From Dehalococcoidia bacterium (GTDB taxonomy: Bacteria > Chloroflexota > Dehalococcoidia > Bin125), in NCBI GenBank assembly GCA_963662615.2, contig CAXXSR010000001.1, positions 896,001 through 960,000 on the forward strand: a stretch of DNA of 64,000 bases. Reading direction: 5' to 3'. A program made the position numbers and the translations under genes. The stretch's first letter is position 1, and each line of letters opens with the position of its first letter. This document shows, piece by piece, positions 2,029 to 42,605 of the stretch. The notes below the pieces were generated by a model. That model searched no databases. It saw only the letters and a program-made list of their open reading frames with translations, and was not told where the DNA came from.

Positions 2029-2307
2029 GTGCGGTCGTGGCTGCAGCGGGTTGGCGTGACCACACTCTTCATCGAACCGGGCAGCCCCTGGGAGGACGGC
2101 TATGTCGAGTCCTTCAACGGCAAGCTCCGCGACGAGTGCCGCAACCCCGCAATCTTCACCACGCTCACGGAAGCGCAGATCTTGATCCAGCGCTGGCGCC
2201 GGGAGGTACACCCAGGTGCGCCCCCACAGCGCCCTCGGCTACCGTCCACCCGCCCCCGAAGCGCTGGAGATCGAGCCTCCCTACCCCCACCCCCTGGGTC
2301 GACAGGA
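2029..2307 (+). pseudogene. IS3-family transposase OrfB 3' remnant, cut by the IS6 element
   Basis: TLFIEPGSPWEDGYVESFNGKLRDEC, then a frameshift into PHSALGYRPPAP. Confidence 0.85.
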
Positions 2308-3203
2308 GGTTCTGTCAGATCTCAGGGCACGGGGACGAACCGGGTCAGGCGCTCCCCCTCGCCGCTCGCGTTATGCCGCCTGCATCTCCGCCATCAGTGA
2401 CCGCCAGCGTGTGACGAAGAGCCGGCGCTGCTCGGCCAGGGGGACAGAGTGGCCTCGTCGCTGGCGAGCGCGGAAGCCGTGCCGGCGCTCATCGAACGCG
2501 GTACAGAACCGGGCGGCGGACGCGAAACTCCCGAAGCCCAGCATTGGGTAGCTGCATCGGTGCAGCAGCTTTTTCCCCAGGATCCAGCGGATCGCGCTGC
2601 GGTACGGCGGAGGCTGGTCCGTGGTGACGCGCTGCGGCTTGCGCGCGGTCACCTCGACGAGTCGCCGGAGGAAGCGCCGGGCGGCGTGCGTGTCCCGGTG
2701 CTCGCTGCGCCTGGAGTCGAGGAGCACCCCCTCGCGGTCGAGGGCGCGGTCGCGAGAGCACCAGCGCCCGGCGACGTGCACGTCGGTCTCGTCCAGGGAC
2801 CAGGAGCCGCCGGCGGGGCCGCGCCGCTTCGCGCGCCGCCGGTCCGCGAGCAGCGGGGCGAAGCGGACCTCCCAGGCGCGGATCGTCTCGTGGGTGACCG
2901 CGAAGCCGCGCTGGAGGAGCCGCGCAGCGACGTCGCGGAAGCCCAGCTTGGAGCGGAGACGCCAGAGCACGGCGCGCAGCACGATGTCCGTTGGGTCCTG
3001 GAGATCGGTGAGGGGCGTGCCGGTCCGCTCGTGGAAGCGCCGCCGGCAGGCCTGGCAGCGGAACCGCCGGGAGCCGAGCGCGGTGCGCCCCTTCCGCTTC
3101 GTCGTGGCCGTGGATGTACCGTCTGGACACGCCAGCAGCGTCCCCTCACCATTCCGCGGATGCGGCTCGCCGAGGCCAGCGAGCCCTGCGTTCTGACAGA
3201 ACC
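2308..3203 (-). mobile_element. IS6-family element, degenerate transposase
   Basis: Terminal inverted repeats GGTTCTGTCAGA (2308-2319) and TCTGACAGAACC (3192-3203). Transposase carries CQAC, W.LDET.V.V.GRW and VTTD motifs with many substitutions. Confidence 0.88.
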
Positions 3204-3368
3204 GAGTTCGCGGGCGTGGTTCTCGATCGCCCAGGTGGCGAACATGTGGTGGAAACGGCCCGTTCACGTCCGTCACCGCCGTCCTCCACCGTCGCGGGAT
3301 ACTCGCCACTCGTTAGTGATGGCGGCGGTACAGTGGTCGATGTCCTAGCAAACGGAAACCGGGTAAAC

Positions 3369-4115
3369 ATGACCGTGATCAGGCCTGTCCTTGCCATTGC
3401 CACGCTTGCCACCCTCCTCGCCGGTTCCCTGTCGTGCAGCGGGGCGCCCGACGCGGTCCGACTGGCGACCGAGGGGGCCTATCCGCCCTACAACTTCCTG
3501 AACGAGGACGGCGAAATCGACGGGCTGGAACGGGAGTTAGGCGATGAGCTGTGCCGGCGGGCCAGTCTCGAGTGCACGTGGGTGACCAACGAATGGGACA
3601 GCACCATCCCCAACCTGGTGGTCGGCGACTACGACGCCGTCCTGACCGGGATGAGCATCACGGACGAGCGGGACGAGCTGATCGACTTCACGCAGCCATA
3701 CCTCCCGCCCAGCCCGTCGGTCTACGTCGCGCTGACCGGTGCCGGCGATGAGGTGGTCACCGGCACGGTGGCCGCCCAGGTGGCCACCGTCCAGGCCGAC
3801 CACCTCTCGGGATCCGGCGCGACGCTGCGGGAGTACACCACGGCGCCGGAAGTCATCGCGGCCATCCTCAGCGGCGAGGCGGATGCGGCGTTGGTCGACG
3901 GCGCGTTCGCCAGCGACAGCATCGCGGAGAGCGGGGGCAGGCTGGCGCTCGTCGGCCCCGAGGTGCCGCTCGACCGCGGTGTGGGCGTGGGCGTCCGGGA
4001 GGGCGATCGGGGGTTGCGGGACACGCTGGACCGGGCGATCGGCGAAATGAAAGAGGATGGCTCGTTGAACGCCCTCATCGAGAACTGGCTGGGCCCCGAC
4101 GCCGAGACCTTCTGA
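3369..4115 (+). CDS. Polar amino-acid ABC transporter substrate-binding protein (SBP family 3)
   Basis: Signal peptide/lipobox LSC; ATEGAYPPYNF, GMSITDER, DFTQPY. ATG at 3369 is in frame with the tracked ORF. Confidence 0.9.
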   Translation: MTVIRPVLAIATLATLLAGSLSCSGAPDAVRLATEGAYPPYNFLNEDGEIDGLERELGDELCRRASLECTWVTNEWDSTIPNLVVGDYDAVLTGMSITDERDELIDFTQPYLPPSPSVYVALTGAGDEVVTGTVAAQVATVQADHLSGSGATLREYTTAPEVIAAILSGEADAALVDGAFASDSIAESGGRLALVGPEVPLDRGVGVGVREGDRGLRDTLDRAIGEMKEDGSLNALIENWLGPDAETF

Positions 4116-4448
4116 GGGTATGGGGGCAGCCCCAGGTCCCAGGGGAGGTGCGTGGTGTTTGGGTACGGCGACCGTCTGTCGGGGTGGGGTGGCCGCTGTC
4201 CGACGCCGCGGAGGACGACTGGCTCGCCCGTCTGCTCATCGACGTGGATCTGGGCGACGAGTCGTAGACACCGTCGACACAGGTGCCTGGGAGCGCGACG
4301 AGGCCTGGCGGCGGGGGTGGAAGGCGCTCGGCATTAGGTACGCTGTTTCGGCAGGTCGGCACGGAAAGTGGATTGCACCGATGGCTTCGGGTGGGACGTG
4401 GGCCGACCTCCTCGCCACGCGCCAGTGAACGCTGGAGACCTTCTGGGC

Positions 4449-4748
4449 TTACTCGTCACCGCTGAAGGGCGGGTATTCGTCGGTGAGCAGGGAAACGTAC
4501 GCGTTGTCGCGCGTGGACCAGCGGAGGTAGTACACGAGCAACTTGGCCAGCCCCTCCGGTCGCTTGCCCGTGATGATGATCACGATCCAGAGCATGATCA
4601 GCACGATCTGCGCGACCATGCCGAGCAGGCTCAGCACAATCAGGTGTGGAATGGCCAAGAGAAGCCGGAAGAAAGTCGTGAGCCGGTTTCCGCGCTCGCT
4701 GTAGTCAATCTGCAGTCGAACCGGGTACTGTCCTGCAGGTCCATCCAT
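4449..4748 (-). CDS. DUF4389-like small membrane protein
   Basis: YPVRLQIDY..RLTTFFRLLLAIPH...ITGKRP...LLTDEYPPF. Confidence 0.75.
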   Translation of the reverse strand: MDGPAGQYPVRLQIDYSERGNRLTTFFRLLLAIPHLIVLSLLGMVAQIVLIMLWIVIIITGKRPEGLAKLLVYYLRWSTRDNAYVSLLTDEYPPFSGDE

Positions 4749-4849
4749 CCGTCGGCCTTCCCGTGGTGGCGTACTTCGCCCCCATTCGCACGCGGCGCGC
4801 CGGGAACATACCGGACGGCGCATGGATGGGCCGAACTCGGGGGCGAGGC

Positions 4850-5004
4850 CGCGCAGCGCCCAGGGCGTGTCGTCGAAGTCGACGGGAGCGGCGAGGGCAC
4901 GGGCCTCGTCCAGCGAACCGGGAGCGATCTGGCCGGCGCGGGCGAGCAGGCGTCGTGTCTGGTCGCCGAAGAACTCGCGCAGGGCGGAATCCTCCGGCTG
5001 CCCG
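4850..5004 (-). pseudogene. Fragment resembling the NuoF/HoxF-type N-terminal region
   Basis: EFFGDQTRRLLARAGQIAPGSLDE; no start or continuation. Confidence 0.3.
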
Positions 5005-5394
5005 CGCGTCTGGGCCGGCTTCGAGACGCCCGACGCCATCGCGCGCGCGGCGACCGCCAGCTTGCTCGGACCGCCGCGGCTCAGCGCGGCTTGGGGAACG
5101 CTCGCCCGGTGGCCGCGTTGGTCACGCGGGTCCCGCGCGCCAACGCCCGCTGGTGCGTTCCGCAGAGGCTTCGGGACGGCGCCGCCGCTGGGCGGGAGCA
5201 TTGCGTGCCCCGGGCGGTCCGCGCTTTGCACTGGGCCATTACGTTCCCTCCTTCGCTGCCAATCCGCTACGTCGGCGACAATGATGACAGATCGATAAGG
5301 CGCGGGGGAGCTTGGCATCGACCCAGACGGGCCGTGGGGTCGTCGTGCTCTGCCCGTCACGCGATCCGCGCCTGGCGCCAGACCAACGAAGAGA

Positions 5395-5826
5395 CTAGGG
5401 GCGATCGCGATCGCGGCCTCCACGTTGCTGCCCCGCGACGAAGGTGGCGCCGACGGTGGTGCAGGCGTAGACGACCTGGATCGCAATCGTCCCGGCGATG
5501 GCGAGCAGCAGGGTGAGGGTTGCGACATCGCTGCGCTGCCCGCGCAGCGGACGCCGCGTCAGCGCGCGGGAGATGACGAACAGGGTCGTCAGCATGGCGG
5601 TCCAGCGCAGACCGGTCCCGCCGGGATTGCCGGTGACTTCCATCAGCGCTCCGAGCAGGAAGACGAGGGGGGAGGCGATGATGACGGTTCGCCAGCCAGT
5701 GTCGTCCCACGCGCTGCGGAGCGCGCCGACGGAGTATTGGCTGCGCTGCTGATGACGCGAGATGACTGTTTCCTTTTCGCGCGAGCACGGTTGGTTCGAG
5801 AGCGGCGGCGTGCGCTCAGGTGGCAT
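5395..5826 (-). CDS. Hypothetical membrane protein (duplicate of 12844-13275)
   Basis: Hydrophobic segments; the WDDTGWR motif is paralogous to the N-terminus of the 13265-14056 protein. Confidence 0.4.
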   Translation of the reverse strand: MPPERTPPLSNQPCSREKETVISRHQQRSQYSVGALRSAWDDTGWRTVIIASPLVFLLGALMEVTGNPGGTGLRWTAMLTTLFVISRALTRRPLRGQRSDVATLTLLLAIAGTIAIQVVYACTTVGATFVAGQQRGGRDRDRP

Positions 5827-6185
5827 CGTCACGGTTTCGGTTGAGGCACTTGGCGATCGGTGGCGCGACGATGGCACAGCCGGCGGCGATGCCCGTGGTG
5901 AAGACGATCCAGGGCCAGTAGAGCTCCTGTCCACCCCACGAAGCGGCGCCGACGCCGCTGGCTTCTGCGCCGTATTCGAGCCACCACGTCAGGACGATGA
6001 ACAGCGCGAGCGCTACGTTGAGCGGGCTCGCGATGGGCCCGCTGAAACCTCGGCCGACGACCCAGCGGGCGATCAACGCGAGCACCGTCGCGATCACGCC
6101 CCAGGAGAACGACGGGGCGGGCACGGACGCGTTCGCCGCCCAGCCGACCATCTCGGCGGTGAAGAAGAGGATCGCGAAGAGCAAC
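5816..6185 (-). pseudogene. 3' half of the membrane protein gene at 13265-14056 (truncated duplicate)
   Basis: LLFAILFFTAEMVG...NRNRDDAT is identical to the C-terminus of the full copy; the 5' half is absent. Confidence 0.8.
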
Positions 6186-6349: not shown

Positions 6350-8125
6350 ATGCAGCAACTTCGCGAGTGGTGGCCTGGAGCGGTCGCGGGACTCGTCGCC
6401 GCCGCGGTGGCGCTGGCTGTCGCCGAGTTCGTCGCGCGCCTCGTCGACGGCGAGTCGCTGGTCGTGGCGATCGGAGACGTAATCATCGACAGCTCCCCGC
6501 GTTCCGTCTCCGGCGCGGCGATCGAAACCTTCGGCACGAACGACAAGCCCGCACTGCTCGTTGGCATCGTCGCCACCTCGTTGCTGCTGGGCGCGGCCCT
6601 GGGGCCGCTCGCGATGCGCTACCGCGCGATCGGCGTAGCCGCCTTGGCGGTCTTCGCCCTCGTCGGCGGGCTCGTGGGGGCCCGCGATCCGTTCACCTCG
6701 CCCGCACAGGCCTGGACCACCGCGCTCGCCGCCGGAATCGCGGGGGCCGCGACGCTCCTCTTGCTGCTCAACGCAGCGACCCAGGCCGGCCCGTCGGCCG
6801 CCGCCGCGCCTCCCGATCCGCAGGAGAAGCGCCTCGGGCGAAGGCGCTTCCTGCAGTTCGCCGGCGGCGGGCTGGCGGCGGCAGCGGTCTCGGTGCCCCT
6901 GGGGCGGCGCCTGATCGGCCCGGCGGTCGATGTGGAAGCGCAGCGCGCCGCAATCGTGCTGCCGCCGCCGAGCACCTCGACGCCGGCGTCACGGCCCGCG
7001 GGGGCCGCGACCGCCGCACTGCCCTCGCCAACCCCCAGCGTGAGCGCCCCGCCCAAAGCGACGGCCACAGCCGAGACCGCGCCCGCCCAGGCAACGCCGA
7101 CCGCCACCGCGCCCGCCGAGGCAACGCCGACCGCGACCGTCACGCCCGAACCGACACCCGAGCCGACGCCCGAGCCCGCACCCGTCGTCCGCGCCGGACC
7201 CGCCACGGTGCCGGGCATCTCGCCGCTCGTCACGCCGAATAGCAAGTTCTACCGCATCGATACGGCACTCTCGGTACCACGCATCGACAGTACGCGGTGG
7301 CGGCTCCAGCTCACCGGGATGGTCGACCGCCCAGCGGAGTTCACGTTCGACGAACTCCTCGCAATGAGCCTGCGCGAGGAGTCGGTGACCCTCGCGTGCG
7401 TCTCGAACAGGGTGGGGCAGGGCCTCGTCGGGAACGCCTACTGGCTCGGCGTCCCGCTTCCCACGTTGCTGCGCGAGGCGGGCGTTCAGGCCGGCGCCAC
7501 GCAGGTGATCGGGCGCGCCGTCGATGGTTTCACCGTCGGCTTCCCCACGGACGTCGCGCTCGACGGGCGCGAGTCGATGGTGGTAGTCGGCATGAACGGC
7601 GAGCCGCTGCCAGCCGAGCACGGGTTCCCCGCGCGCCTGATCGTGCCGGGGCTCTACGGCTACGTCTCCGCGACGAAGTGGCTCGGCGAGATCGAGCTGT
7701 CGACGCTCGACTCCTTCGATTCCTACTGGGTGCGGCGAGGCTGGGCCCAGCAGGCGCCGATCAAGCTGCAGTCGCGCATCGACGTCCCGCACGACGGCGC
7801 CACGCTCGCGCCCGGCAACGTGCGTGTCGCCGGCGTCGCCTGGGGCGGGCTGAGCGGCGTCAGCGGCGTTCAGGTTCGGCCAGGCGAGCGATCGCCCGGC
7901 GCGCAGCCTTCGGAAGGCGGATGGATCGACGCCGTTCTGAGCGAGGAGCTGTCCGACAGCAGTTGGCGTCAGTGGGTGGTCGACTGGCCCGCCACCGAGG
8001 GCGCGTTCCGCCTCGAGGTACGCGCGATCGATCGCAGCGGCATGGTGCAGACGGCCGAGCAGATGGAGCCGTTTCCCGATGGCGCCACGGGGCACCACAC
8101 GATTGCCGTGACCGTCGAGGGTTAG
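6350..8125 (+). CDS. Membrane-anchored molybdopterin-dependent oxidoreductase (sulfite oxidase family) with Pro/Thr/Ala linker
   Basis: N-terminal TM helices, internal RRRFL, FYRIDTAL, LACVSN, HGFPARLIVPGLYGYVSATKW, C-terminal PFPDGATG. Confidence 0.92.
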   Translation: MQQLREWWPGAVAGLVAAAVALAVAEFVARLVDGESLVVAIGDVIIDSSPRSVSGAAIETFGTNDKPALLVGIVATSLLLGAALGPLAMRYRAIGVAALAVFALVGGLVGARDPFTSPAQAWTTALAAGIAGAATLLLLLNAATQAGPSAAAAPPDPQEKRLGRRRFLQFAGGGLAAAAVSVPLGRRLIGPAVDVEAQRAAIVLPPPSTSTPASRPAGAATAALPSPTPSVSAPPKATATAETAPAQATPTATAPAEATPTATVTPEPTPEPTPEPAPVVRAGPATVPGISPLVTPNSKFYRIDTALSVPRIDSTRWRLQLTGMVDRPAEFTFDELLAMSLREESVTLACVSNRVGQGLVGNAYWLGVPLPTLLREAGVQAGATQVIGRAVDGFTVGFPTDVALDGRESMVVVGMNGEPLPAEHGFPARLIVPGLYGYVSATKWLGEIELSTLDSFDSYWVRRGWAQQAPIKLQSRIDVPHDGATLAPGNVRVAGVAWGGLSGVSGVQVRPGERSPGAQPSEGGWIDAVLSEELSDSSWRQWVVDWPATEGAFRLEVRAIDRSGMVQTAEQMEPFPDGATGHHTIAVTVEG

Positions 8126-12426: not shown

Positions 12427-12453
12427 GGCAGTAACAGCGTCGTCTCCTTCCGC

Positions 12454-14550: not shown

Positions 14551-14830
14551 TCAGAAGTTTCCCGAGGCCACCTCACGCAGGATCGAGTTGTCCAGCGCTT
14601 GCTCCGCGACCAGCTGCTTCAGCCGCGCGTTCTCGCGCTCCAGCTCCTTCAGCCGCTTCGCCTGGTCGACCCGCATCCCGCCGTACTCGAGACGCCAGCA
14701 GTAGTAGGTCTGCTCACTCATCCCGAGCTTGCGCACCGCCTGGCCCACCGTATCGCCCTGGGCGAGGTGGACCTCTGCCTCCCGCAGCTTGGCGATGATC
14801 TCCTCAGCTGCGTACCGCTTCCGCTTGCTC
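14551..14830 (-). pseudogene. IS3-family OrfA remnant
   Basis: KRYAAEEIIAKLREAE...EQTYY.WR.EYGG...LKELERENARLK...GNF. Confidence 0.85.
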
Positions 14831-14835
14831 GCCCA

Positions 14836-14935
14836 GACGAGCTGTGGGGAACCGACGCCACACGCGCGTTCATTCACAAGAGGTATACGAGCTGAGAAAG
14901 CAACTGGTCGAACCTGTCTTCGGAATCATCAAGGT
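14836..14935 (+). pseudogene. Short transposase scraps (ELWGTDAT; YELRKQLVEPVFGIIK, IS1182/IS5-like)
   Basis: Motif recognition only. Confidence 0.5.
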
Positions 14936-15085: not shown

Positions 15086-15994
15086 CTACTCATACCAGCC
15101 CGATCCAAATAGCAGCCCGTCATGCCGCACAATCCAAGTGTGTTTCTGACGGTTCTCGCCCGATTCCGGGTTGAGCAACACATAGTCGACCCAATGACCC
15201 GCCTCAGTGGCGCTCAGTAAGTCGTCGCCATAGAAATACCCCGTGGCGTCCACACGGAGGCTGGGATCACGCCCTCGAAACTGCGGGTTATGGTGGGCTA
15301 TCGTGTAGCCGTCTTGGTCGATGATGAAGACATACCACTGGCCGTCAACGATGATGAAGACATACCACTGGCCGTCAACGCTCTCCTGGGCGTTGTAGTA
15401 GGCGACCGTCTCCTCCAGGCCGAGGGCGACGTAGAGGTTCATGGCCTGCCGCACGAAGGTCTTGGTGTAGGCGGGGGCGTCGGACTTGGCGGGGCCGCGT
15501 TCGTACCAGCCGGAGCCGAAGGTAATGCCGTCGTGGATCACCACCCAGGAGTGCTTGGTCTCCACAACGCCAGAGGCGGGATTGGGATAGGTGTAGTCGA
15601 ACCAGGCGCCGTCCTGGTCGGCGGAGGCGGCGACGGCGGACCCTGTGGGGTAGGAGTTGGGTCCGAGAGCCTGGGAGACGTGCTTGCCCACGAGGTCGGG
15701 GTTGGGGGCATGAGCGATGATGGTCTGGTTCTCATCGGTGATGAAGACATACCACTGGCCGTCGACACTGTGGGGGGAGTTGAAAAAGGCGAGGGCGGCC
15801 TGGCGGCCCTGGGCATCGTAGCGCGCGAGGGCCTGCTGCACGAACCAGTGGGTATAGGCGCTGGGCTCGGCCTTGGAGGGGGGCGGTGCAGCGGCGGGAG
15901 CGGGAGCGGGATCATCGATAAGCGCGAGGATGGCGACGATCAACGCCGCCAGGGCGAGGGCCGCCGTGGTACCGATTGTGATTCGTCGCGCCAT
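15086..15994 (-). CDS. Exported tandem Cache-domain protein with no output domain
   Basis: N-terminal TM/signal; two repeats of GQWYVFI.D..G..IAH...W.DY...NP.SG....KH.W...HDG..FGSGWYE. Confidence 0.85.
   Translation of the reverse strand: MARRITIGTTAALALAALIVAILALIDDPAPAPAAAPPPSKAEPSAYTHWFVQQALARYDAQGRQAALAFFNSPHSVDGQWYVFITDENQTIIAHAPNPDLVGKHVSQALGPNSYPTGSAVAASADQDGAWFDYTYPNPASGVVETKHSWVVIHDGITFGSGWYERGPAKSDAPAYTKTFVRQAMNLYVALGLEETVAYYNAQESVDGQWYVFIIVDGQWYVFIIDQDGYTIAHHNPQFRGRDPSLRVDATGYFYGDDLLSATEAGHWVDYVLLNPESGENRQKHTWIVRHDGLLFGSGWYE
15321..15380. repeat. Perfect 30-bp tandem duplication, in frame (VDGQWYVFII x2)
   Basis: ATGATGAAGACATACCACTGGCCGTCAACG twice. Confidence 0.95.
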
Positions 15995-16129
15995 TTCGTG
16001 TAGCTCCGCCCCATCCTCTGCCGGTGAAGCGGGCGGGGTCGCCCGCCGCGCACCGAGTATAGCCAGGCGCTGCCTCCAGATCGCGCACCGCGGGTATGTG
16101 CTCGACCAGGGCCGCGGCGAGCATCTACG

Positions 16130-17061
16130 CCGCGCTCGACACGCCGGCCTTCCACGCCTCCGGCCGCGTGTCCGCGGGGCTCTCGATCACCTGATGCTGT
16201 GCGAGCGCCGCCCGCGCGTGACCGAGGTCGATCGTCTGCGCTGGGCGCCCCTCCGCCGTCGCTGGGCGGGCGGGCGCACGTCCCTGGTGATCCTCCATCC
16301 GGACACGGTCGGGCGTTGGCATCGCACCGGCTGGCGCCGGTTCTGGACCTGGAAGAGTCGCCCGCACCGGCCGGGGCGGCGGCGGATCCCGGTCGAGGCG
16401 CGGGATCTGATTCTCCGCCTTGCGCGGGAGAATCCGCGCTGGGGCGCGGTGCGCATCCGGGCCGAGCTGCGGACGCTCGGTTCCGACGTGAGTGCGAAGG
16501 CGGACCTTCCTCCCCAACCAGCGCGGCGTCATCTGGGCGGCGGACTGCTGCCCCGTCCCGACGCGCACGGTCGGGACGGTGTCCGTCTTCTTCATCATCG
16601 CGCATGCGCGGCGCCGCATCGAGGACGTCACCGTCACGGCCCATCCCACGGCGGCCTGGACCTGGCAGCAGATGATCGAGGCCACGGCCTGTAACCATCG
16701 CCCGCGCTCTCTGATCCGAGACCGCGACCGCGCCTACGGGCGCGACTGCGTGGCCCGGGCGCAGCGGCTTGGGAGTGAGACGATCTGGACACCGGTGCGG
16801 GCTCCGCATGCGAATGCCGTGGCCGAGCGCTGGATCGGGACGCTCCGACGCGCGTGCTCGCATCACATCATTCCGCTCAACGCGCGGCACCTGCAGCGGA
16901 TCATCCCAGAGTGCGTCGCCTCTTCCAACGAGACGCGTCCCCATCGGCCCCTCGACCTCCATCCGCCAGCCGGGCCGCGCGCGCCCCAGCGGCACGGGCG
17001 CGTCGTCGCGCCCCCGATGCTGGGAGGCCTCCATCATCGCGACGAACGGGCTGCTGCCTGA
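16130..17061 (+). pseudogene. Degenerate integrase-core (rve) transposase
   Basis: PDTVGRWHR..., ENPRWGAVRIRAEL, LIRDRDRAYG, ANAVAERWIGTLRR, LGGLHH; frameshifted. Confidence 0.85.
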
Positions 17062-17082
17062 CGATCCGTATTGTGTGGCCCG

Positions 17083-17277
17083 ACAGCCGCTCTGGTGATC
17101 GATCAACTCATCGAAACCGCCGCCGAAGAGAACACGGAATGCATCGTCGTGAATCTCTCCGGTTCCGTCGCCAAGACCCTCCACTCCCTCAATGCTCTCA
17201 AGTGGGTTCCGGAAGAGCATTTCGTGGACACTCTGGACGAGGCGAGGCTGCTCGCCAAGAGCCTGCTCCACGACTGA
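17083..17277 (+). pseudogene. C-terminal STAS-domain fragment (SulP-like)
   Basis: TAALVIDQLIE...V..TLHSLNAL..VP...F.DTLDEA. Confidence 0.45.
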
Positions 17278-17389: not shown

Positions 17390-18283
17390 GTGAGCAGCCA
17401 AACGCAAGCATACCTGTACGCGGGAGGTGCGGTTCTCCTGTGGGCTACCGCCGCGTCGGCGTTCAAGGTGTCGCTGCGCTACGTCGAAGCGCCGCACATG
17501 CTGCTCTACGCGACGATCGTATCGACGCTGGTGCTGCTCGCCGTCGCGGCCTGGCAGCGCAAGCTGGGGCAGGCGCTGATCGGTTCGCCCAAGCAGTATC
17601 TGCGGTCGGCGGCGCTCGGCCTCCTCAACCCGTTCCTCTACTACCTCGTGCTGTTCGAGGCTTACGACCGTCTGCCCGCCCAAGAGGCGCAGTCGCTCAA
17701 CTATGCCTGGCCCATGGTGGTCGTGATCCTCTCGGTGCCGCTGCTCAAGCAGCCCCTGGGCAGGATCTCCCTGGCCGCGATCGCGGTGAGCTTCTGCGGC
17801 GTGCTCGTGATCGCGACGCGCGGCGACCTGCTGGCCTTTCGCGTGAGCGATCCGGTCGGCACGGCCCTGGCGGTCGGCAGCGCCTTCATTTGGGCCACGT
17901 TCTGGCTGACCAATGTCCGGGACGACCGCGATGCCGTCGTCAAGCTGCTGCTGAACTTCGCCTTCGGATTGGTGTTCGTTCTCGCCGCGGCCTACGCCCT
18001 GGCCGGCCCGCCGCCTCTGGACCTGCGCGGCATCGGAGGATCGGCGTACGTCGGCGTCTTCGAGATGGGCCTGACCTTCGTCCTCTGGATGCGCGCCCTC
18101 TCGCTCTCGCGGACGACCGCGCAGGTCAGCAACCTCGTCTACCTATCGCCGTTCCTCTCCCTCGTCTTCATCAGCGTCATCGTCGGAGAGACGATCCGGC
18201 CGTCGTCGGTACTCGGGCTGCTGCTCATTATCGGGGGCATCGTCATCCGCCGCTTCGACCGGACCGCGCCGCGACCGGTCTGA
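17390..18283 (+). CDS. DMT/EamA family transporter
   Basis: 10 TM segments; LLWAT.ASAFK, NPFLYYLVLFEAY.LPAQEAQSLNYAWP. Confidence 0.92.
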   Translation: MSSQTQAYLYAGGAVLLWATAASAFKVSLRYVEAPHMLLYATIVSTLVLLAVAAWQRKLGQALIGSPKQYLRSAALGLLNPFLYYLVLFEAYDRLPAQEAQSLNYAWPMVVVILSVPLLKQPLGRISLAAIAVSFCGVLVIATRGDLLAFRVSDPVGTALAVGSAFIWATFWLTNVRDDRDAVVKLLLNFAFGLVFVLAAAYALAGPPPLDLRGIGGSAYVGVFEMGLTFVLWMRALSLSRTTAQVSNLVYLSPFLSLVFISVIVGETIRPSSVLGLLLIIGGIVIRRFDRTAPRPV

Positions 18284-18357
18284 AGCACCGCTTCTTCCGA
18301 CCCGGCCCAAACCACCTTCATCGGTAGCGCGCCCTCACCAGCGCTCGCCTGGAAGGG

Positions 18358-22257: not shown

Positions 22258-22862
22258 GGCCCGTCCATGGACGCTCTGCTTGCCCGGGAAGTCAAGGCAG
22301 CCCCGCCCCGGACGGCGGGGCTGCTGGGAGCCGCAGGCGGATGGCGGCAGCGGCGACCCGGCAGCAAAGCGGCGGTCCGTCGCGCATGCCGTCATGCTGC
22401 CATCTTGGCGCGACAGCGGCGCCGACGAGCGCGCGAGCTCTGGCTGGGCTACCAGTGGGGCGCCAACGAGCTGGCCCTGGTGCTGGATCTGGTAGGGAGA
22501 ACCACGGGTGCGCGGCGACTTTCTCGGACGACTTCGAATCTCACCAGTCGTCGATCCTGCTTCTGGATTACGCTATCCATCGTTGTCGGCGCTTCCCTCC
22601 ATTACCCGTTCACCATGCGGATGTAGTCATCCACGAGTGAGAGAATCCGAGTACTAACCGACGGGACGGGATCGAGCCCCGATTTGAGTGCGCGCCGAGA
22701 CTGGCGCAGGGCTGGCGTCGCCTCTCGCCCCCGGTGCAGATGAGCAAGCAGCACTGAGACCAGAAGCGTCTCTTGCTGTCTGGGAAGCGCCCGTGTTGCC
22801 AGCGCAGCGACCACGCCCGCTACGACCACCACCGCTGAGTCCTCAGAGCACTCTGGCCCCTC

Positions 22863-23815
22863 GGTTCTGTCAGATCGCAGGGCGCCGGCACGAACCGAGC
22901 GAGGCGTTCCCCCCGCGGCGCCCACTCTGCGGCCTGCCTCTCCGCGATCAATGACCGCCAGCGCGCTGCGACGAGCCGTCGCGGCTCGGCCAGCGGGACC
23001 TGCGCACCCCATCGTTGACGGACGCGGCCGTCCGGTCGGCGCTCAGCGAACGCGGAACAGCACCGCACAGCAGACGCGAAGCTCCCGCAGCCGAGCAGCG
23101 GGCGAGAGCGCTGCGTGACGGCCCGCTGGTCCGGCTCGATGCGGGTGGTCACGGAGTGATGGCATCGGTGTCGCCCCTTGCTCCCCAGGATCCAGCGGAT
23201 CGCCCGCCGGTCGGGCGGATGGGCCTCCGTCGTGACGCGTAGCGGCTTACGCTCAGCCACCTCGACGAGTCGTCTCAGGAATCTCCGGGCGGCGTGCCTA
23301 TCGCGGTGCTCGCTGAGCATGGAGTCGAGGAGGTCGCCATCGCGGTCGATGGCGCGGTAGAGAGAGCACCAGCGGCCCGCGACCTTCACGGAGGTCTCAT
23401 CGATGTACCAGGAGACGCCGGCGCAGCCTCGGCGCTTGGTCCGGAGCCGGTCCGCCAAGAGCGGCGCGAGGCGGAACTCCCAAATCCGGATCGTCTCGTC
23501 GGTGACCTCGTAGCCCCGCTCGAGGAGCAGCGCGGCGACGTCGCGGAAGCTGAGCGTGTAACGGAGACGCCAGAGTACGGCGAGCAGGACGATATCCGTC
23601 GGGTACTGGAGATCGTTGAACGGGGTGCCGGTCCGCTCGTTGAAGGTCCTCCGGCAGGCGCGGCACGCGGAGGTGCGGTAGCCGAGTGCGGTGCGCCGCC
23701 GCCGGCGGCTGGTCTCTCCGGAGCCCCAGTGGGGACAGTCCACAAGCCGTCCTCTCCAGGTCGCTGGTGAGCGCGACGCTAACAGAGGACCCGTAGTCTG
23801 AGATCTGACGGAACC
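22863..23815 (-). mobile_element. IS6-family element, degenerate
   Basis: TIRs GGTTCTGTCAGAT (22863) and ATCTGACGGAACC (ends 23815); transposase ORF 22820-23743 with WYIDET, YRAIDRDG. Confidence 0.88.
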
Positions 23816-23818
23816 GCG

Positions 23819-23940
23819 CCGGCGACCTGGTGCGGCGCACGGGGGTGCCGCCGCGGGCGGGGCGCCTCTCCGCCGGCGACGTGGTGGAGATCGAAGCGGA
23901 GGGCATTGGCGTCCTGCGCAACCCGGTCGTGGGGGCCTGA
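23819..23940 (+). pseudogene. Fumarylacetoacetate-hydrolase-family C-terminal fragment
   Basis: GDLV..TG...[18 protein letters not shown]. Confidence 0.65.
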
Positions 23941-26371: not shown

Positions 26372-27621
26372 TGACCTGCCCCCCCAGAACCGGTCCAGAT
26401 CCTGTGCGAGGATTCGGGGCGGTGCGAAGGGAGTCGGCATGGCACGCAAGCGGTACGCGGCCGAGGAGATCATCGGCAAACTGCGGGAGGCGGAGGGGGT
26501 GCTCGCGCAGGGGGAAGCGGTCGCGCAGGTCGCGCGCCGCCTCGGCGTGGCCGAGCCAACGTATTACCGCTGGCGGCGGGAGTACGGGGGGCTGCGGGTC
26601 GACCAGGCCAAGCGGCTGAAAGAACTGGAGCGCGAGAACAGTCGGCTGAAGCGGTTGGTGGCCGATCAGGCGCTGGACAACGCGATGTTGCGGGACGTCG
26701 CAGCGGGAAACTTCTGAGCCCGGCCCAGCGGCGCCGGGCGACATCCTACCGCACGGACCAGGACGCGGTGTCGGAGCGGCGGGCCGGCCAGGTCACCGGC
26801 CAGGCGCGGGCGACACAGCGCTACGTGCCCCGGCCGTCCCCGGATGCGCCGGCGCTGATCGCGCGGATCATCGCCCTTGCCCGCCGCTTCGGGCGCTACG
26901 GCTCCCGGCGCATCACGGCGCTGCTGCGGGCCGAGGGCTGGCGGGTGAACCACAAGCGGGTGGAGCGGCTCTGGCGGCAGGAAGGGCTGCGGGTGCCCCG
27001 GAAAGCCCCGCGCCGGCGGCGGCTTTGGGCGGCCGATGGATCCTGCACGCGGCGCCGGGCGGAGCGCCCGAACCACGTCTGGTCCTACGACTTCGTCAGC
27101 GAGCGGACCCACGACGGCCGGCCCCTGCGCCTGCTGACCATCGTCGACGAGTACACGCGGGAGTGCCTCAGCATTGACGTGGCCCGGCGCCTGCGGTCCG
27201 ACGACGTCCTCGCCCGGCTGACGGCGCTCTTCGTGCAGCGGGGCCCGCCCACCTACGTCCGCTCCGACAACGGCCCCGAGTTCACGGCGACGGCGGTGCG
27301 TTCCTGGCTGCGTCGCCTCGGCGTGACGACACTCTTCATCGAGCCCGGCAGCCCCTGGGAGAACGGCTATGTGGAATCCTTCAACGGCAAGCTGCGCGAC
27401 GAGTGCCTCAACCCCGAGATCTTCACCACGCTCACGGAAGCGCAGATCCTGGTCGATCGCTGGCGCCGGGAGTACAACCAAGTCCGGCCTCACAGCGCCC
27501 TCGGCTACCGCCCCCCCGCCCCAGAGACCCTGGAGGTCGGACCTCCCCACCCCACCCCTTTGGCAGACCGGATGGTTCTGGCACTAACTTAAGCCCTGGT
27601 ACAACAATCGGGGGCAGGTCA
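26372..27621 (+). mobile_element. IS3-family element, full length (orfA 26439-26717; orfB to 27592 via -1 frameshift at GGGAAAC)
   Basis: TIRs TGACCTGCCCCC / GGGGGCAGGTCA; DDE motifs WSYDF, SDNGPEF, ESFNGKLRDEC. Confidence 0.95.
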
Positions 27622-28311
27622 CCCGGATGAGCCGGCGCTGATCGCGCGCATCGTCGCCCTCGCCACGCGCTTCGGCCGCTCCGGCTCCCGCCACATCACG
27701 GCCCTGCTGCGCGCGGAGGGCTGAGGACCGACCGGCTCGCTGGTCCGGCGGCGGGCCGAGCGCCCCCACCACGTCTGGTCCTACGACGTCGTCTTCGACC
27801 GCACCGCCGCTGGGCGCCCGGTGCGGATCCTCGCCCTCGTGGATGAGTACACGCGCGCGTGCCTGAGTCTCGACGTGGCCCGCCGGCTGCGTAGCGACGC
27901 TGTCCTGGCGCGGCTGGCCCAGCTCTTCGTCGAGCGTGGGCCGCCGGCGTACCTGCGGTCCGACAACGGCCCGGAGTTCACGGCCACGGCGGTGCGCGAC
28001 TGGCGGACGCGGGTCGGCGTGACCACCCGCTTCATCGAGCCCGGCAGTCCCTGGGAGAACGGCTCTGTGGAATCTTTCCACGGCACGCTGCGCGACGAGT
28101 GCCGCACCCCCGAGATCTTCACGACCCGCACCGAAGCCCAGGTCCTCATCGCCCGCTGGCGGCGCGAGTACCACCCAATCCGGCCCCACCGTGCGCTCGG
28201 CTCCCGGCCACCCGCCCCGGAAACGCAGGCGATCCGATCTCCCCCCTCCGGGCAGCCTCGGAGCGTCCCAACCCTCACTTAACCACTGGTACAACGATCG
28301 GGGGCAGGTCA
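27622..28311 (+). mobile_element. Degenerate IS3 right half in tandem with the preceding IS
   Basis: OrfB remnant with an internal deletion; right TIR ends 28311. Confidence 0.9.
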
Positions 28312-28400
28312 GTCTGGTAGCCCAGGTTGGAGCCTTCCATCGCCGTGCCGGTCTTGACGAAGAAGTACCGGCGGCAGACGCGGCAGTGTCCGTCCGCTCT
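28312..28400 (-). pseudogene. IS1595-family transposase N-terminal fragment
   Basis: CRVCRRYFFVKTGTAMEGSNLGYQT, cut by the IS3 end. Confidence 0.65.
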
Positions 28401-31880: not shown

Positions 31881-31894
31881 GGGGGGGGTTGCGC

Positions 31895-33130: not shown

Positions 33131-33154
33131 GATCGCATTCGAGGGGAGTGCAGC

Positions 33155-33961
<807 letters not shown>

Positions 33962-33979
33962 GACCAGCACTAGCGGACC

Positions 33980-34200
33980 TGTGCAGCGCGCGGGCACTGA
34001 CGTTTGACGTGTTCGGCACCGTCGTCGACTGGCGTTGATTGAAGGCGTTCGGCGCGCGGCGTGACGTCGTGAGCAATGAGGGGGTTCGTGGATCGTTGGC
34101 GGCGCGAGGGCTACGCGGGCAACATTCGTCTCGTGCGCGACGGGCAGCTTCCGTTTCAGACGGCCGATTCGTTGCACCGACCAATGTTGGAACATGCTGC
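33980..34200 (+). pseudogene. Haloacid dehalogenase type II remnant
   Basis: RALTFDVFGTVVDWR then a stop; cut by IS3. Confidence 0.55.
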
Positions 34201-34201
34201 T

Positions 34202-35443
34202 TGACCTGCCCCCCCAGAACCGGTCCAGATCCTGTGCGAGGATTCGGGCCGGTGCGAAGGGAGTCGGCATGGCACGCAAGCGGTACGCGGCCGAGGAGAT
34301 CATCGGCAAACTGCGGGAGGCGGAGGTGGTGCTCGCGCAGGGGGAAGCGGTCGCGCAGGTCGCGCGCCGCCTCGGCGTGGCCGAGCCAACGTATTACCGC
34401 TGGCGGCGGGAGTACGGGGGGCTGCGGGTCGACCAGGCCAAGCGGCTGCAAGAACTGGAGCGCGAGAACAGTCGGCTGAAGCGGTTGGTGGCCGATCAGG
34501 CGCTGGACAACGCGATGTTGCGGGACGTCGCAGCGGGAAACTTCTGAGCCCGGCCAAGCGGCGCCGGGCGACATCCTACCTCACGGACCAGTACGCGGTG
34601 TCGGAGCGGCGGGCCTGCCAGGTCACCGGCCAGGCGCGGGCGACACAGCGCTACGTGCCCCGGCCGTCCCCGGATGCGCCGGCGCTGATCGCGCGCATCG
34701 TCGCGCTGGCCACCCGCTTCGGCCGCTACGGCTCCCGTCGCATCACGGCCCTGCTGCGCCAGGAGGGCTGGCGGGTGAACCACAAGCGGGTCGAGCGGCT
34801 CTGGCGTCAGGAAGGCTTGCGGGTCCCCGGGAAGCACCCCCAACGGGGCCGCCTCTGGCTCGCGGCCGGCTCGCTGGTGCGGCGGCGGGCCGAGCGGCCG
34901 TCCCACGTCTGGTCCTACGACTTCGTCTTCGACCGCACCGCCGCTGGGCGCCCGGTGCGGATCCTCGCCATCGTGGATGAGGACCACCCGCGAGTGCCTG
35001 CGTCTCGACGTCGCCCGCCGACTGCGCAGCGACGACGTCCTGGCGCGGTTGGCCCAGCTGTTCGTCGAGCGCGGGCCGCCGACGTTGCTGCGGTCCGACA
35101 ACGGCCCGGAGTTCACCGCCACCGCGGTGCGGGACTGGCTGCACCGGGTCGGGGTCACGACCCTCTTCATCGCACCGGGCAGTCCTTGGGAGAACGGCTA
35201 TGTGGAATCGTTCCACGGCAAGCTGCGCGACGAGTGCCTCAATCGCGAGCGCTTCGACACCCTGCTGGAAGCCCAGATCCTCATCGAGGGCTGGCGGCGG
35301 GAGTACAACCAGATCCGCCCCCACAGTGCCCTCGGCTACCGCCCCCCCGCCCCGGAAACGCAGCAACCCCGGGAACGTCCCCTGACGCTCGTCCCGGCGA
35401 TCGGACTAACTTAACGACTGGTACAACGATCGGGGTCAGGTCA
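34202..35443 (+). mobile_element. IS3-family element, orfB frameshifted
   Basis: TIRs at both ends; frameshift at GATGAGGACCACCCG (~34980). Confidence 0.95.
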
Positions 35444-35509
35444 ATCCGGCGAGCGCTGATGGTGTCCTACATTAGCCTCGCAGCGGGACGCTGCGGTATC
35501 GTCGGCGTC

Positions 35510-39452: not shown

Positions 39453-39750
39453 GCAGCGGCCGTCACGGCCGGCCGGCCACCCGTTGCTCACGGCTTCCTG
39501 CGCGATGTGCAGGACGGCGGCCGATATCTCAGGCCATTTCGGCGGCGTTGAGGAGCATCGCACTGCTCGGGCGCGAAGGACGGGAACGATCATGGAAGGT
39601 GACGGCCAGCTGGGGCTGATCCGCCACCTATGGGGCGGGAATAATGCATCGTTCTGATCTCGATGCCGTGGGCTGCGCCGATCGAGCGCCACTCAGTGGA
39701 ACGGCCGGTCGCCTTTGATGGTGACGCGGATGCCGCGTCGCGTCTCGGGG

Positions 39751-40992
39751 TGACCTGCCCCCCCAGAACCGGTCCAGATCCTGTGCGAGGATTCGGGGCG
39801 GTGCGAAGGGAGTCGGCATGGCACGCAAGCGGTACGCGGCCGAGGAGATCATCGGCAAACTGCGGGAGGCGGAGGTGGTGCTCGCGCAGGGGGAAGCGGT
39901 CGCGCAGGTCGCGCGCCGCCTCGGCGTGGCCGAGCCAACGTATTACCGCTGGCGGCGGGAGTACGGGGGTCTGCGGGTCGACCAGGCCAAGCGGCTGAAA
40001 GAACTGGAGCGCGAGAACAGTCGGCTGAAGCGGTTGGTGGCCGATCAGGCGCTGGCCAACGCGATGTTGCGGGACGTCGCAGCGGGAAACTTCTGCGCCC
40101 GGCCCAGCGGCGCCGGGCGACATCCTCCCGCACGGACCAGGACGCGGTGTCGGAGCGGCGGGCCGGCCAGGTCACCGGCCAGGCGCGGGCGACACAGCGC
40201 TACGTGCCCCGGCCGTCCCCGGATGCGCCGGCGCTGATCGCGCGCATCGTCGCGCTGGCCACCCGCTTCGGCCGCTACGGCTCCCGTCGCATCACGGCCC
40301 TGCTGCGCCAGGAGGGCTGGCGGGTGAACCACAAGCGGGTCGAGCGGCGCTGGCGTCAGGAAGGCTTGCGGGTCCCCGGGAAGCACCCCCAACGGGGCCG
40401 CCTCTGGCTCGCGGCCGGCTCGCTGGTGCGGCGGCGGGCCGAGCGGCCGTCCCACGTCTGGTCCTACGACTTCGTCTTCGACCGCACCGCCGATGGGCGC
40501 CCGGTGCGGATCCTCGCCATCGTGGATGAGGACCACCCGCGAGTGCCTGCGTCTCGACGTCGCCCGCCGACTGCGCAGCGACGACGTCCTGGCGCGGTTG
40601 GCCCAGCTGTTCGTCGAGCGCGGGCCGCCGACGTTGCTGCGGTCCGACAACGGCCCGGAGTTCACCGCCACCGCGGTGCGGGACTGGCTGCACCGGGTCG
40701 GGGTCACGACCCTCTTCATCGCACCGGGCAGTCCTTGGGAGAACGGCTATGTGGAATCGTTCCACGGCAAGCTGCGCGACGAGTGCCTCAATCGCGAGCG
40801 CTTCGACACCCTGCTGGAAGCCCAGATCCTCATCGAGGGCTGGCGGCGGGAGTACAACCAGATCCGCCCCCACAGTGCCCTCGGCTACCGCCCCCCCGCC
40901 CCGGAAACGCAGCAACCCCGGGAACGTCCCCTGACGCTCGTCCCGGCGATCGGACTAACTTAACGACTGGTACAACGATCGGGGGCAGGTCA
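39751..40992 (+). mobile_element. IS3-family element, same frameshift as the 34202 copy; orfA stop mutated
   Basis: TIRs at both ends; near-identical to 34202-35443 at offset 5549. Confidence 0.95.
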
Positions 40993-41104
40993 GTGCGCGT
41001 CACCGACTCCAACGGGCTCTCGATGCTCGTGCCCGTCAGAGTGGACATCATCAACTGACCTCCAGTCGCTGGCTTTGGTATGCTAGCGCGCAGGAGGGCA
41101 CATA

Positions 41105-41707
41105 ATGCTGCGACTGGCTGCGATCGCTCTGGTGCTACTGCTCGCAGGCTTCCTCGCTCTCGCTCTCGCGCCGACCGCGCAGGCCCAGGACGATCCCTAC
41201 GGTGACGGCCTCACTCGTGGCGAACTTGGCGAGTGGTTCCGCGAGAACTCACCCGGCGAGACTGAGCTTCGGACCGCCATACTGGGCTGGATCGATCCAT
41301 GCAAGGAAGACGGCTGCTGGCTCACCCGGGGCAAGGTGTTTCTGGCGATGAGCCAGGTGGACGACGATGACGCCGGCGCCGAGTCTTCCATCGGCAAGTT
41401 CCACAGCACCGATACTCCTAGCGGTTCGCACGTCACCGGGGAGACGTTGCAGGGCTGGATCAACGAGTGGCGGGCATTCCACAGGGCCGAACATGCAGCG
41501 GCGCCGCCAGCGGCGCCGCCCACGCCTGAGCCGACACCGCCCCCTGTGCCGACGCCGTGGTGGGAGGAGACGACCCCGGCGCCACACTCCGTGGAGACAT
41601 TCGAGGTGCAGCCGTGGTGGTGCGATGGCAACCGCTGCGGTTTCACCCCCGGGCCGCTGGTCACGTGCCACGTTATGAGCGACGGCTTCATCGAGTGCGA
41701 GCAGTGA
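41105..41707 (+). CDS. Hypothetical secreted protein with Pro-rich linker and Cys-rich tail
   Basis: AGGAGG RBS, signal peptide ending AQA, WWCDGNRCG...C...C. Confidence 0.7.
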   Translation: MLRLAAIALVLLLAGFLALALAPTAQAQDDPYGDGLTRGELGEWFRENSPGETELRTAILGWIDPCKEDGCWLTRGKVFLAMSQVDDDDAGAESSIGKFHSTDTPSGSHVTGETLQGWINEWRAFHRAEHAAAPPAAPPTPEPTPPPVPTPWWEETTPAPHSVETFEVQPWWCDGNRCGFTPGPLVTCHVMSDGFIECEQ

Positions 41708-41719
41708 ACCCGGGAGGCT

Positions 41720-42214
41720 CCGATGCCTGAACCGTTCTCCGAACAGAACGTCCTTCACTCCTGGGAGCTTCAGTTCTGCCAGCGCATCGTGCCGCTCCTC
41801 GCAGCGCTCGGGGTCCAGCGACTCCACGCGAACAAGATGGGCCGCATTGATCGCACCGCCGAGCTGCCTCACACGTGGGCGCTCGGCTGGCGTGAAGGCA
41901 AAAACGACCATCGCCCGAGCGTCTCGCCGCGTGACATTCGGGCGGACGACATTTTCTGGTAGCACACCCGTCATCAGCTCTATCCGCTCGGTCAGGGCCG
42001 CCAGATACCCGAAGGTCGGGAACGGCTCCGGCTACTCCTGCTCGTAGGTATACGGGCCTTCCCAGCCGTCGGGCCGATCCGGATCGGCCCCGAGGACGTA
42101 CTCGCCCATGGCCCGGCGTGCGTAGCCGGCCGCCTCAGCCGCTTGCGCGTAATCACGCAGGATGGCGGGGTCGGAGCCCAACTCGCAGGACGGATAGAAG
42201 GCGACCAACTCCAC
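41720..42214 (-). pseudogene. LLM-class F420-dependent oxidoreductase remnant
   Basis: DPAILRDYAQAAEAAGY...VLGADP...GPYT..E*PEPFPTFGYLAALTERIELMTGV; internal stop. Confidence 0.75.
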
Positions 42215-42469
42215 AGCACACCTCGCTTCCTGAATCGGTGAACGGCCCCGACCGACTCCTCAGCTCGGTTCAGATTCCGCCGCCGACACGCTCGGCAGCC
42301 GTTGCCGCAGCTCGGCAAGCGTGGCCCCGCGGTATCGCCAGTCCGCCCACCCATTCCAGCTCCGACGACTCCGGATCGCCGCTGAAGCGGCCGACGGCGT
42401 GCCATGGTTCCCGCTCCGCACTTCGCCCCTTTCCCGTGCTCTGTCTACTCAGGTATGTAATCCCCTCTC

Positions 42470-42605
42470 GCCCTGCGCCAGGCCACCTCCGCCTCCCGCA
42501 GCGTCCCGATGATCTGCTCTGCCGTGGACCGCTTCCGCGCCATGCCGACTCCCCTCTCTCGGCCGCGATCCTCGCACAGGATATGGACCGGTTCTGGGCA
42601 GGTCA
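42470..42605 (-). mobile_element. IS3 left-end remnant
   Basis: TGACCTGCCCAGAACCGG end plus MARKRSTAEQIIGTLREAEV. Confidence 0.8.

Follow-up and report, generated by a model that had tools for sequence, protein, structure and literature searches.

A:T→C:G substitutions in insertion sequences of a Dehalococcoidia genome seem to be confined to mobile DNA

Insertion sequence (IS) elements and their remnants are abundant in the first 43 kb of a 64,000-nt stretch, hereafter the window (positions 896001-960000 of contig C1), of a Dehalococcoidia genome that we call G000 (2.66 Mb in two contigs, 68% G+C). Copies of one of these elements, the 1242-bp IS-X, differ from each other mainly by A:T→C:G transversions. 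Relative to neighbouring neutral sites, the process seems to be confined to mobile DNA, and a genome-wide A:T→C:G bias, at least over the period of IS-X divergence, is not supported. A bias of this kind had been proposed earlier from the letters of the window (the original prediction); the observation is confirmed as real and is much stronger than first described. Coordinates of elements are given as window positions, and two related genomes, G009 and G004, were used for comparison.

Results

IS-X copies within the genome

IS-X starts with TGACCTG, ends with CAGGTCA and carries two open reading frames (ORFs), orfA with an HTH_Tnp_1 domain (63.7 bits) and orfB with HTH_21 (60.3 bits), rve_3 (99.5 bits) and rve (42.3 bits) domains. 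Judging by these predicted domains, an HTH in orfA and a DDE (rve) core in orfB, it is a member of the IS3 family. The N-terminal part of orfB lies in the -1 frame relative to orfA, and an extra base near element position 783 shifts the catalytic part into another frame. G000 has two full copies, both on the forward strand of the window: copy B at 34202..35443, with orfB split near position 783, and copy C at 39751..40992. A truncated copy (D) and two 3' parts of 820 nt each (E and F) lie outside the window.

Copies B and C align over 1242 bases with no gaps and have 13 mismatches, 12 of which are A/C or G/T differences (hereafter AC/GT, an unpolarised class) and one G/C, with no transitions. 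The original prediction had listed 13 A/C or G/T differences and one G/C difference among three IS3 copies; a three-way alignment recovered every one of them, including A26717/C40096, which indeed destroys the orfA stop codon (TGA to TGC in copy C). The polarity of this difference is ambiguous. A→C or T→G accounts for about ten of the 13 differences in the window, and two are G→T (39970 in copy C and 35436 in copy B). One correction concerns copy A (26372..27622, forward strand). It is a chimera, which belongs to IS-X only in its first ~500 nt (98-100% identity to B and C); the remainder, with an ordinary spectrum, is 64-92% identical to B and C per 50-nt block and almost matches a different IS3 family, IS-Y.

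In further pairs of IS-X copies in G000, AC/GT accounted for 4/4, 7/7, 1/1, 4/4, 3/3, 18/26, 23/32, and 12/17 differences. As a control, we used 11 repeat pairs from G000, hand-picked from 70 repeat rows at identity of at least 96% with IS-X, tandem arrays, and the contig overlap excluded. Their 149 differences were comprised of 69 transitions, 43 G/C, 31 AC/GT, and 6 A/T. A second control was provided by IS3 relatives in other metagenome-assembled genomes (MAGs), where 53 variable sites included 36 transitions and 7 AC/GT. This set consists of a 10-copy family (38 variable sites: 29 transitions, 4 AC/GT, 3 G/C, 2 A/T) and three smaller sets (7 transitions and 3 AC/GT among 15 variable sites). 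The share of AC/GT between copies B and C, 12/13, is far outside both control rates (31/149 and 7/53).

IS-X in a second genome

Of 65 genomes from this order, only G000 and G009 contain IS-X at identity of at least 94%. The latter has at least 12 full-length copies, 94-96% identical to copy B, and five partial matches. Core genes of the two genomes have only 67-78% DNA identity and 47-71% protein identity. As this is low compared to the 94-96% identity of IS-X, the element must have moved between the lineages recently.

Copy B differs from each of ten G009 copies by 51-62 substitutions per 1242 nt, with 50-62 AC/GT and 0-4 transitions; for one copy, all 62 of 62 substitutions are AC/GT. Among 13 G009 copies, there are 61 variable sites, namely 49 AC/GT, nine transitions, one G/C, one A/T, and one with three states. 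The more distant G004 copy (87% identity) has an ordinary spectrum when compared to copy B, with 54 transitions, 49 G/C, 30 AC/GT, and 2 A/T. Given the core-gene identity and the 0-4 transitions, the AC/GT divergence of IS-X between G000 and G009 is too fast for the host. The G+C content of IS-X is 71% in G000 and higher in G009, at 74-75%.

The A:T→C:G states in G009 are fixed at 28 sites, have intermediate frequency at 33 (shared by two to nine copies) and are private to one copy at five. The sharing is reticulate, as 157 of 496 informative site pairs fail the four-gamete test, which is in favour of conversion between copies. Moreover, sites altered in both genomes overlap more often than expected (18 vs 6.0 expected of 304 sites, P = 2.6e-7), although common descent probably accounts for seven of the 18. 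The overlap and the reticulate sharing fit gene conversion, hot spots, or both.

We also looked for close copies of IS-X elsewhere. The exact 47-nt left-end pattern had no match in the metagenome contigs, and a protein-guided scan of these contigs yielded only IS-X relatives with at most 76% amino-acid identity. A scan of genome contigs produced G009's own copies and otherwise relatives at no more than 77%. There was no sign of a plasmid vehicle on the small G009 contigs C10, C13, and C14.

Direction of change and spared ends

Changes in IS-X were polarised with the G004 copy as an outgroup, giving 105 site-level events, with nine further sites of ambiguous polarity. The bias is unidirectional. 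There were 39 A→C, 37 T→G, six C→A, and five G→T events, and 18 of all other kinds, hence 76 of the 105 events were A:T→C:G, compared to 11 in the reverse direction. The ratio of A:T→C:G to A:T→G:C was 76 to 5, and C:G→T:A changes were also rare (five G→A and two C→T). The bias is also strand-symmetric: A→C and T→G alternate along the element as if by chance (37 runs vs 34.5 expected), and no strand-coordinated clusters of either were found in IS-X. Neighbouring bases have a weak effect, as changes are less frequent at an A that follows A or precedes T, and no sequence motif was found around the altered A/T sites of IS-X.

The ends of the element are spared. None of the 50 A/T sites at positions 1-106 and 1208-1242 are altered, compared to 81/312 sites inside (Fisher p = 1.7e-6), while 11.9 hits were expected at the ends from context-specific rates. 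Inside the element there is no purifying selection: changes occurred at 73 of the 298 A/T sites where they have a nonsynonymous effect and at one of the 12 synonymous ones. The IS-X transposase gene is therefore decaying freely.

Affected and unaffected elements

In other elements we counted A→C or T→G among the changes private to each element. In remnant R (27618..28330, forward strand), which retains the 3' two-thirds of a related IS3 element and is most similar to the G004 copy, these made up 17 of 26 private changes, in agreement with the original prediction, which had seen the fingerprint of IS-X in the decayed element at 27821-28282. It had also seen it in an rve-type (integrase-core) remnant (15870..17100, forward strand), common to G009 C11:31106-31981 at 89-96% identity; the count there was 17/31, and 13/23 in the G009 counterpart. 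In the two IS6-like remnants, both on the forward strand, the predicted fingerprint was present but weaker. IS6a (2300..3150; ends GGTTCTGTCAGATCT) had 13/34 biased changes vs two transitions from A/T, and IS6b (22850..23830) had 16/65, both counts being based on a partly poor alignment. Compared to G009 C11:33364-33875, IS6a has 38 mismatches, 23 of them AC/GT; the 3' end of IS6b (23519-23820) has 11 mismatches with C11:29047-29347, including six AC/GT. The IS-Y-like part of copy A has only two private changes, both T→G.

Some elements are not affected. In the short IS3-type remnant at 2026..2314 (forward strand), just 7 of 42 private changes are A→C or T→G, and the fingerprint expected there was not found. 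An IS3-type orfA (HTH_Tnp_1; 14554..14925, reverse strand) lies in a segment shared with G009 at 98.7% identity, which has 11 mismatches in 854 nt, three of them AC/GT, and is not hypermutated. Neither is IS-W, a relative of IS-X (86% identity) in G009, where A:T→C:G makes up 3 of 80 private changes.

Neighbouring and core DNA

Beyond IS-X, G000 and G009 have common segments with 94-98% identity, and these allow for a direct comparison of dead elements and the genes between them. Four dead IS elements in the shared segments have 126 AC/GT differences vs 717 unchanged A/T sites (60/306 in IS-X, 37/209 in the rve remnant, 23/115 in IS6a, and 6/87 in the IS6b-like piece). At 4-fold degenerate sites of the ORFs between them, there are three AC/GT differences vs 97 unchanged sites (Fisher p = 3e-4). 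In ordinary divergence the order is reversed, with 8/779 at the 4-fold sites of the intervening ORFs vs 1/1242 in IS-X.

Two cargo genes of the window, both on the forward strand, serve as controls. A gene with the Oxidored_molyb domain (6350..8125) is 97% identical to its match on G009 C4, with 14 transitions and seven AC/GT among 26 mismatches; at its 4-fold sites there are two AC/GT differences vs 43 unchanged A/T. A gene encoding an EamA transporter (17390..18283) is 97.6% identical to G009 C11:29334-30336, with 14 transitions and five AC/GT among 24 mismatches. In the latter gene, 17 of the 21 differences from G009 are found within ~100 nt at the 3' end (window 18160-18309), so the last ~150 nt are mosaic or there is a recombination breakpoint inside a recently shared gene.

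A 9.3-kb duplication in G009 (L229:9294-18580 and L230:6197-15478, 99.6% identity) provides a further comparison, as one of its copies starts exactly at an IS-X end. Its 26 substitutions are comprised of 16 transitions, five AC/GT, four A/T, and one G/C; none of the 177 A/T-bearing 4-fold sites have an AC/GT difference, and 13 of 15 changes within ORFs are nonsynonymous. The IS-X copies adjoining the duplication are 35 substitutions apart, and 30 of these are AC/GT. The duplicated cargo encodes a tyrosine recombinase, an ImuB-like Y-family protein (448 aa), a DnaE2-like polymerase (1106 aa), and a dienelactone hydrolase. This segment is a mobile error-prone-polymerase cassette.

In core genes (1460 well-aligned codons), the numbers of private AT→CG changes in G000, G009, and G004 were 15, 33, and 28, vs 23, 36, and 35 for AT→GC. 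At third codon positions there were 0-1 AT→CG vs 6-12 AT→GC changes, and the G+C content at third positions (GC3) in G000 is 84.6%. Finally, differences between strains in unique DNA, taken from contigs of public sequencing runs, included 31 transitions, four AC/GT, two A/T, and two G/C among the 39 listed; as functional genes contain few neutral A/T sites, these do not discriminate for or against a genome-wide process.

Of the two possibilities raised by the original prediction, a lineage-wide mutT-type spectrum is therefore disfavoured by the core third positions, the GC3 value and the ordinary recent duplications, and preferential mutagenesis of mobile DNA is upheld, as the bias in mobile elements far exceeds that in neighbouring or core DNA.

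A mutator background could still produce such a picture if the elements had dwelt in a host without effective 8-oxo-dGTP sanitation, either a former donor or, in a past episode, G000 and G009. All neutral DNA would then have drifted, dead IS elements would be the main surviving record of neutral A/T sites, and DNA acquired or duplicated later would be clean. The spectrum is that of mutT loss, the change is unidirectional and strand-symmetric, and 298 of the 310 A/T sites in IS-X are nonsynonymous, so that the signal would be hidden in functional genes; a modest episode is also compatible with the strain differences given above. The best argument for it is the AC/GT load between G000 and G009, which is nearly equal in three unrelated IS families (15-17% of A/T-bearing sites) and looks like common exposure in an earlier host, not like family-specific events. 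Still, we consider this explanation rather unlikely. The shared intervening genes are older by ordinary divergence, yet have 3/100 AC/GT differences at 4-fold sites vs 126/843 in the dead elements, and the 9.3-kb duplication has 0/177 at an ordinary divergence equal to that of the adjoining IS copies. Core genes have no excess in any of the three lineages, and IS-W, which resides in the same genome and has the same extra base as IS-X, has only 3/80 biased private changes. Moreover, the ten aligned G009 copies are all at least six changes apart, so the donor variant would need many separate arrivals.

Sequencing and assembly

An artefact of repeats in long-read metagenome assemblies had been considered a real alternative in the original prediction. 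Indeed, both genomes are assemblies without isolate confirmation, G009 being a MAG, and some short-read chemistries are known to confuse A with C and G with T. Nevertheless, the derived states are shared by copies at different loci and by two separately assembled genomes. An error confined to high-copy repeats is at odds with the bias in single-copy remnants and with the transition-rich multi-copy IS3 relatives in other MAGs, and the spectrum is ordinary in other repeats of these assemblies. In four public runs from three studies, contigs spanning the unique flanks have 0-21 other letters per piece and contain at least one of the IS-X variant sites (35382) at high depth. Thus, the substitutions in the IS copies are real, and an artefact is very improbable as their source.

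In the same four runs, the summed contig depth at window positions 33301-35562, covering the IS and ~900 nt upstream, is 500-2700, while in most of the remaining bins it is roughly 2-300. IS-X-like sequences, together with the conserved upstream gene, are far more abundant in those samples than unique DNA of G000. Runs labelled as sponge or sediment metagenomes contained small shares, from which no habitat is deduced.

Polymerase and repair genes

DinB-like and ImuB/DnaE2-like polymerase genes are present. The DinB-like Y-family polymerase gene of the window (PF00817; 52503..52943, forward strand) is a syntenic core gene in all five genomes searched and is mentioned for context only. There was no match to reverse transcriptase (PF00078) in G000 or G009, and we rejected a route via a diversity-generating retroelement (DGR) or retron for this reason.

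The original prediction had pointed to mutT, mutM, and mutY. Fpg is present in all five genomes. For MutT (TIGR00586), only generic Nudix matches were found in the five genomes, with at most 35 bits vs the cut-off of 97.9; since just 3 of 14 control genomes reach this cut-off, the lack of a MutT equivalog above it says little in favour of a mutator background. A mutY-like gene is intact in the relatives searched (~200 bits, below the equivalog cut-off). In G000 this gene (C1:1561626-1562239) is split by one frameshift into two frames and is otherwise well conserved, which also made it uninformative as a pseudogene control.

The presence of the mutY-like gene in the relatives, together with the reticulate sharing of variants (157/496 incompatible pairs), would agree with biased gene conversion of the MutY type, which favours C:G alleles and does not raise the mutation rate. 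By our estimate, however, the gain in fixation would be at most about the copy number, which falls short of the 76-to-5 excess, and ordinary changes are nearly absent. Conversion cannot act on single-copy remnants, and the G000 gene is frameshifted. By this reasoning, we rejected MutY-driven conversion as the sole cause and regard it as scarcely credible.

Structure of IS-X and other repeats

The extra base near position 783 is present in copies B, C, E, and F, in every G009 copy of IS-X and in IS-W, and is absent from copy D. In copy B it is found at window position 34984 (GAGGACCAC vs GAGTA-CAC), where it splits orfB. In IS-W (G009 L112 and L118; ~86% identity to IS-X), both halves of the protein look conserved. 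The extra base either has been spread by conversion or is tolerated, e.g., via recoding. Some contigs of one public run have a 1-base deletion at 34984, which means that a version of IS-X without the extra base exists.

IS-X and IS-Y, whose terminal repeats are almost the same, form hybrids. In addition to copy A, a full IS-Y is joined to the last 820 nt of IS-X in two composites, which contain copies E and F (G000 C1:1191572-1193632 and 1649964-1652024). Given the similarity of the terminal repeats, IS-Y could plausibly mobilise IS-X in trans. No target-site duplications were found at ten G009 copies of IS-X, three full G000 copies and five copies of IS-Y, so they provide no handle on how the copies arose. 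An inverted 131-nt fragment (42468..42598, reverse strand) is 84-85% identical to the left end of IS-X.

Near the truncated copy D, an 821-nt stretch (G000 C1:1680007-1680827) is 99.9% identical to G009 C14:7940-8760, with one difference, and in G009 it is found near an intact rve ORF of 403 aa. This suggests that an active IS was exchanged very recently by two genomes with ~72% core identity.

Several other repeats were noted. G000 C1:2001306-2007983, at the end of contig 1, is the same as C2:1-6678 over 6678 bp, so the two contigs probably join here. The reverse strand of the window at 24016-26217 encodes a 733-aa, secreted-looking protein with a weak match to DUF4114 and five 54-nt tandem repeats (PPPPPPPGNTQSDNSGNT) at 25129-25405; the sole variable position of these repeats is A/C and is synonymous in the frame of the gene. 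A 1185-bp repeat (window 5002-6185 and 12450-13634) is 99.8% identical, with one transition and one indel, and its ORFs resemble membrane proteins. No recognisable transposase ORF was found in it, nor a close relative in 64 related genomes.

Discussion

The explanation that we favour, tentatively and with somewhat less than even confidence, is misincorporation of G opposite A during DNA synthesis confined to non-autonomous elements. The process would put G opposite template A, which appears as A→C or T→G depending on the strand, and its chemistry may be that of 8-oxo-dGTP misincorporation. It would act on mobile elements themselves and not on the whole chromosome. Those affected are non-autonomous or dead IS lineages, where the transposase is unselected and only the ends are kept. 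The errors may arise in element-limited DNA synthesis, possibly linked to transposition. Such synthesis could take place when an element is copied in replicative or copy-out transposition, during repair or gene conversion between copies, or while the element stays outside the chromosome. The source of errors would be a low-fidelity polymerase or an oxidised dGTP pool.

Several observations weigh against this explanation, in addition to the similar load of the three IS families. The five G000 copies of IS-Y are 0-1 substitution apart, none of the changes being A:T→C:G; six G009 copies of a 956-bp family have 0-4 differences; and the sole difference between composites E and F is a cluster of three sites resembling a conversion tract. 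Intact elements thus have transposed recently yet remain unmutated, hence copying cannot always be error-prone. If each event generated mutations, more changes private to single G009 copies would be predicted than the few observed (five A:T→C:G and four other), unless gene conversion is frequent. One of the cargo ORFs in the 4-fold counts is an IS3-type orfA, and without it the ratio becomes 3 vs 78 (binomial P ~0.001, calculated by hand). There is no match to Prim-Pol (PF09250) at E ≤0.01 in G000 or G009, other families of archaeo-eukaryotic primases being outside the search. Lastly, the variants specific to individual copies of IS-X were read from assembled contigs.

In a directed defence, a host system would detect mobile or repeated sequences and introduce mutations into them in place. 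It would be a bacterial counterpart of fungal repeat-induced point mutation (RIP), though its chemistry differs. Compared to neighbouring DNA, the bias is restricted to IS DNA, the transposase genes are destroyed, and the same sites tend to be altered in both genomes (18 vs 6.0 expected, seven of the 18 probably by descent), all of which a defence might produce. However, the multi-copy IS-Y (five copies) and the 956-bp family (six copies) are untouched, single-copy remnants are affected, and IS-W and the orfA fragment at 14554-14925 are not. The untouched multi-copy families and the affected single-copy remnants also speak against the repeat-directed, RIP-like trigger that had been proposed for the window. 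The ends of the element are never altered, and a process acting in place should not spare them; there is no candidate machinery, and no reverse transcriptase was found in either genome. Hence, we consider a directed defence improbable. A broader proposition, that hypermutation specific to mobile DNA takes place in the host or the element by forced G-opposite-A pairing, be it a RIP-like defence that kills transposase genes or an inherent, condition-dependent property of the replicative transposition intermediate, seems possible, if doubtful. In that case, the evolution of non-autonomous IS lineages would outpace that of their host chromosome tens to hundreds of times. Whatever probability remains beyond the explanations named here belongs to causes that we have not thought of.

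Parts of the pattern resemble known systems. Loss of the 8-oxo-dGTPase MutT, e.g., in E. coli mutT strains, yields an A:T→C:G spectrum, and the near-exclusive, unidirectional change on both strands in IS-X is similar; but a mutT defect acts genome-wide, whereas here the neutral neighbours, recent duplications, and core genes are ordinary. Fungal RIP is triggered by duplication and results in C:G→T:A transitions. Like RIP, the process has left mobile copies riddled with one class of substitutions and their genes destroyed; unlike RIP, it generates transversions, has altered single-copy remnants and has not altered several multi-copy families. DGRs depend on a reverse transcriptase and replace A by any base, on a single strand. 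The localised changes at adenines are reminiscent of them, but A→C and T→G are equally frequent here (39 and 37), A→G and A→T are rare, and neither genome has a PF00078 match. Break-associated mutagenesis spreads over kilobases of flanking DNA, whereas here the excess stops at the element boundary. To our knowledge, localised hypermutation in bacteria is limited to a few special systems, and we know of mutation directed at mobile elements from fungi (RIP) and not from bacteria. In the literature searched, we found no report of A:T→C:G hypermutation confined to IS elements and no bacterial counterpart of RIP.

Two further systems concern polymerases. The IS-excision enhancer (IEE), a PrimPol-type protein, acts on IS elements that transpose by the copy-out-paste-in route (10.1101/2023.06.07.543989; PMC9943667). 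According to the sections consulted, it is a reduced-fidelity polymerase working on transposition intermediates of the IS3 type and thus provides a precedent for low-fidelity synthesis limited to an element. However, IEE promotes excision, the same sections describe no hypermutation, and a PF09250 match is missing from G000 and G009. The Y-family polymerase DinB, judging by the part of the source consulted, incorporates oxidised dGTP opposite template A (PMC9927291). Such a polymerase supplied with oxidised dGTP yields A:T→C:G changes, and DinB-like and ImuB/DnaE2-like genes are present here.

If the process is confined to the elements, it would be a new way for IS lineages to die or diversify, and IS-X would carry a natural footprint of misincorporation of the 8-oxo-dGTP type. 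Overall identity would also be unsafe for dating IS copies or horizontal transfers, as the 95% identity hides ~99.8% identity at all other substitution classes. If the host has passed through a mutator phase instead, the elements would provide direct natural evidence for mutation pressure raising the G+C content, which, if true, would bear on the debate over why some bacterial genomes are GC-rich.

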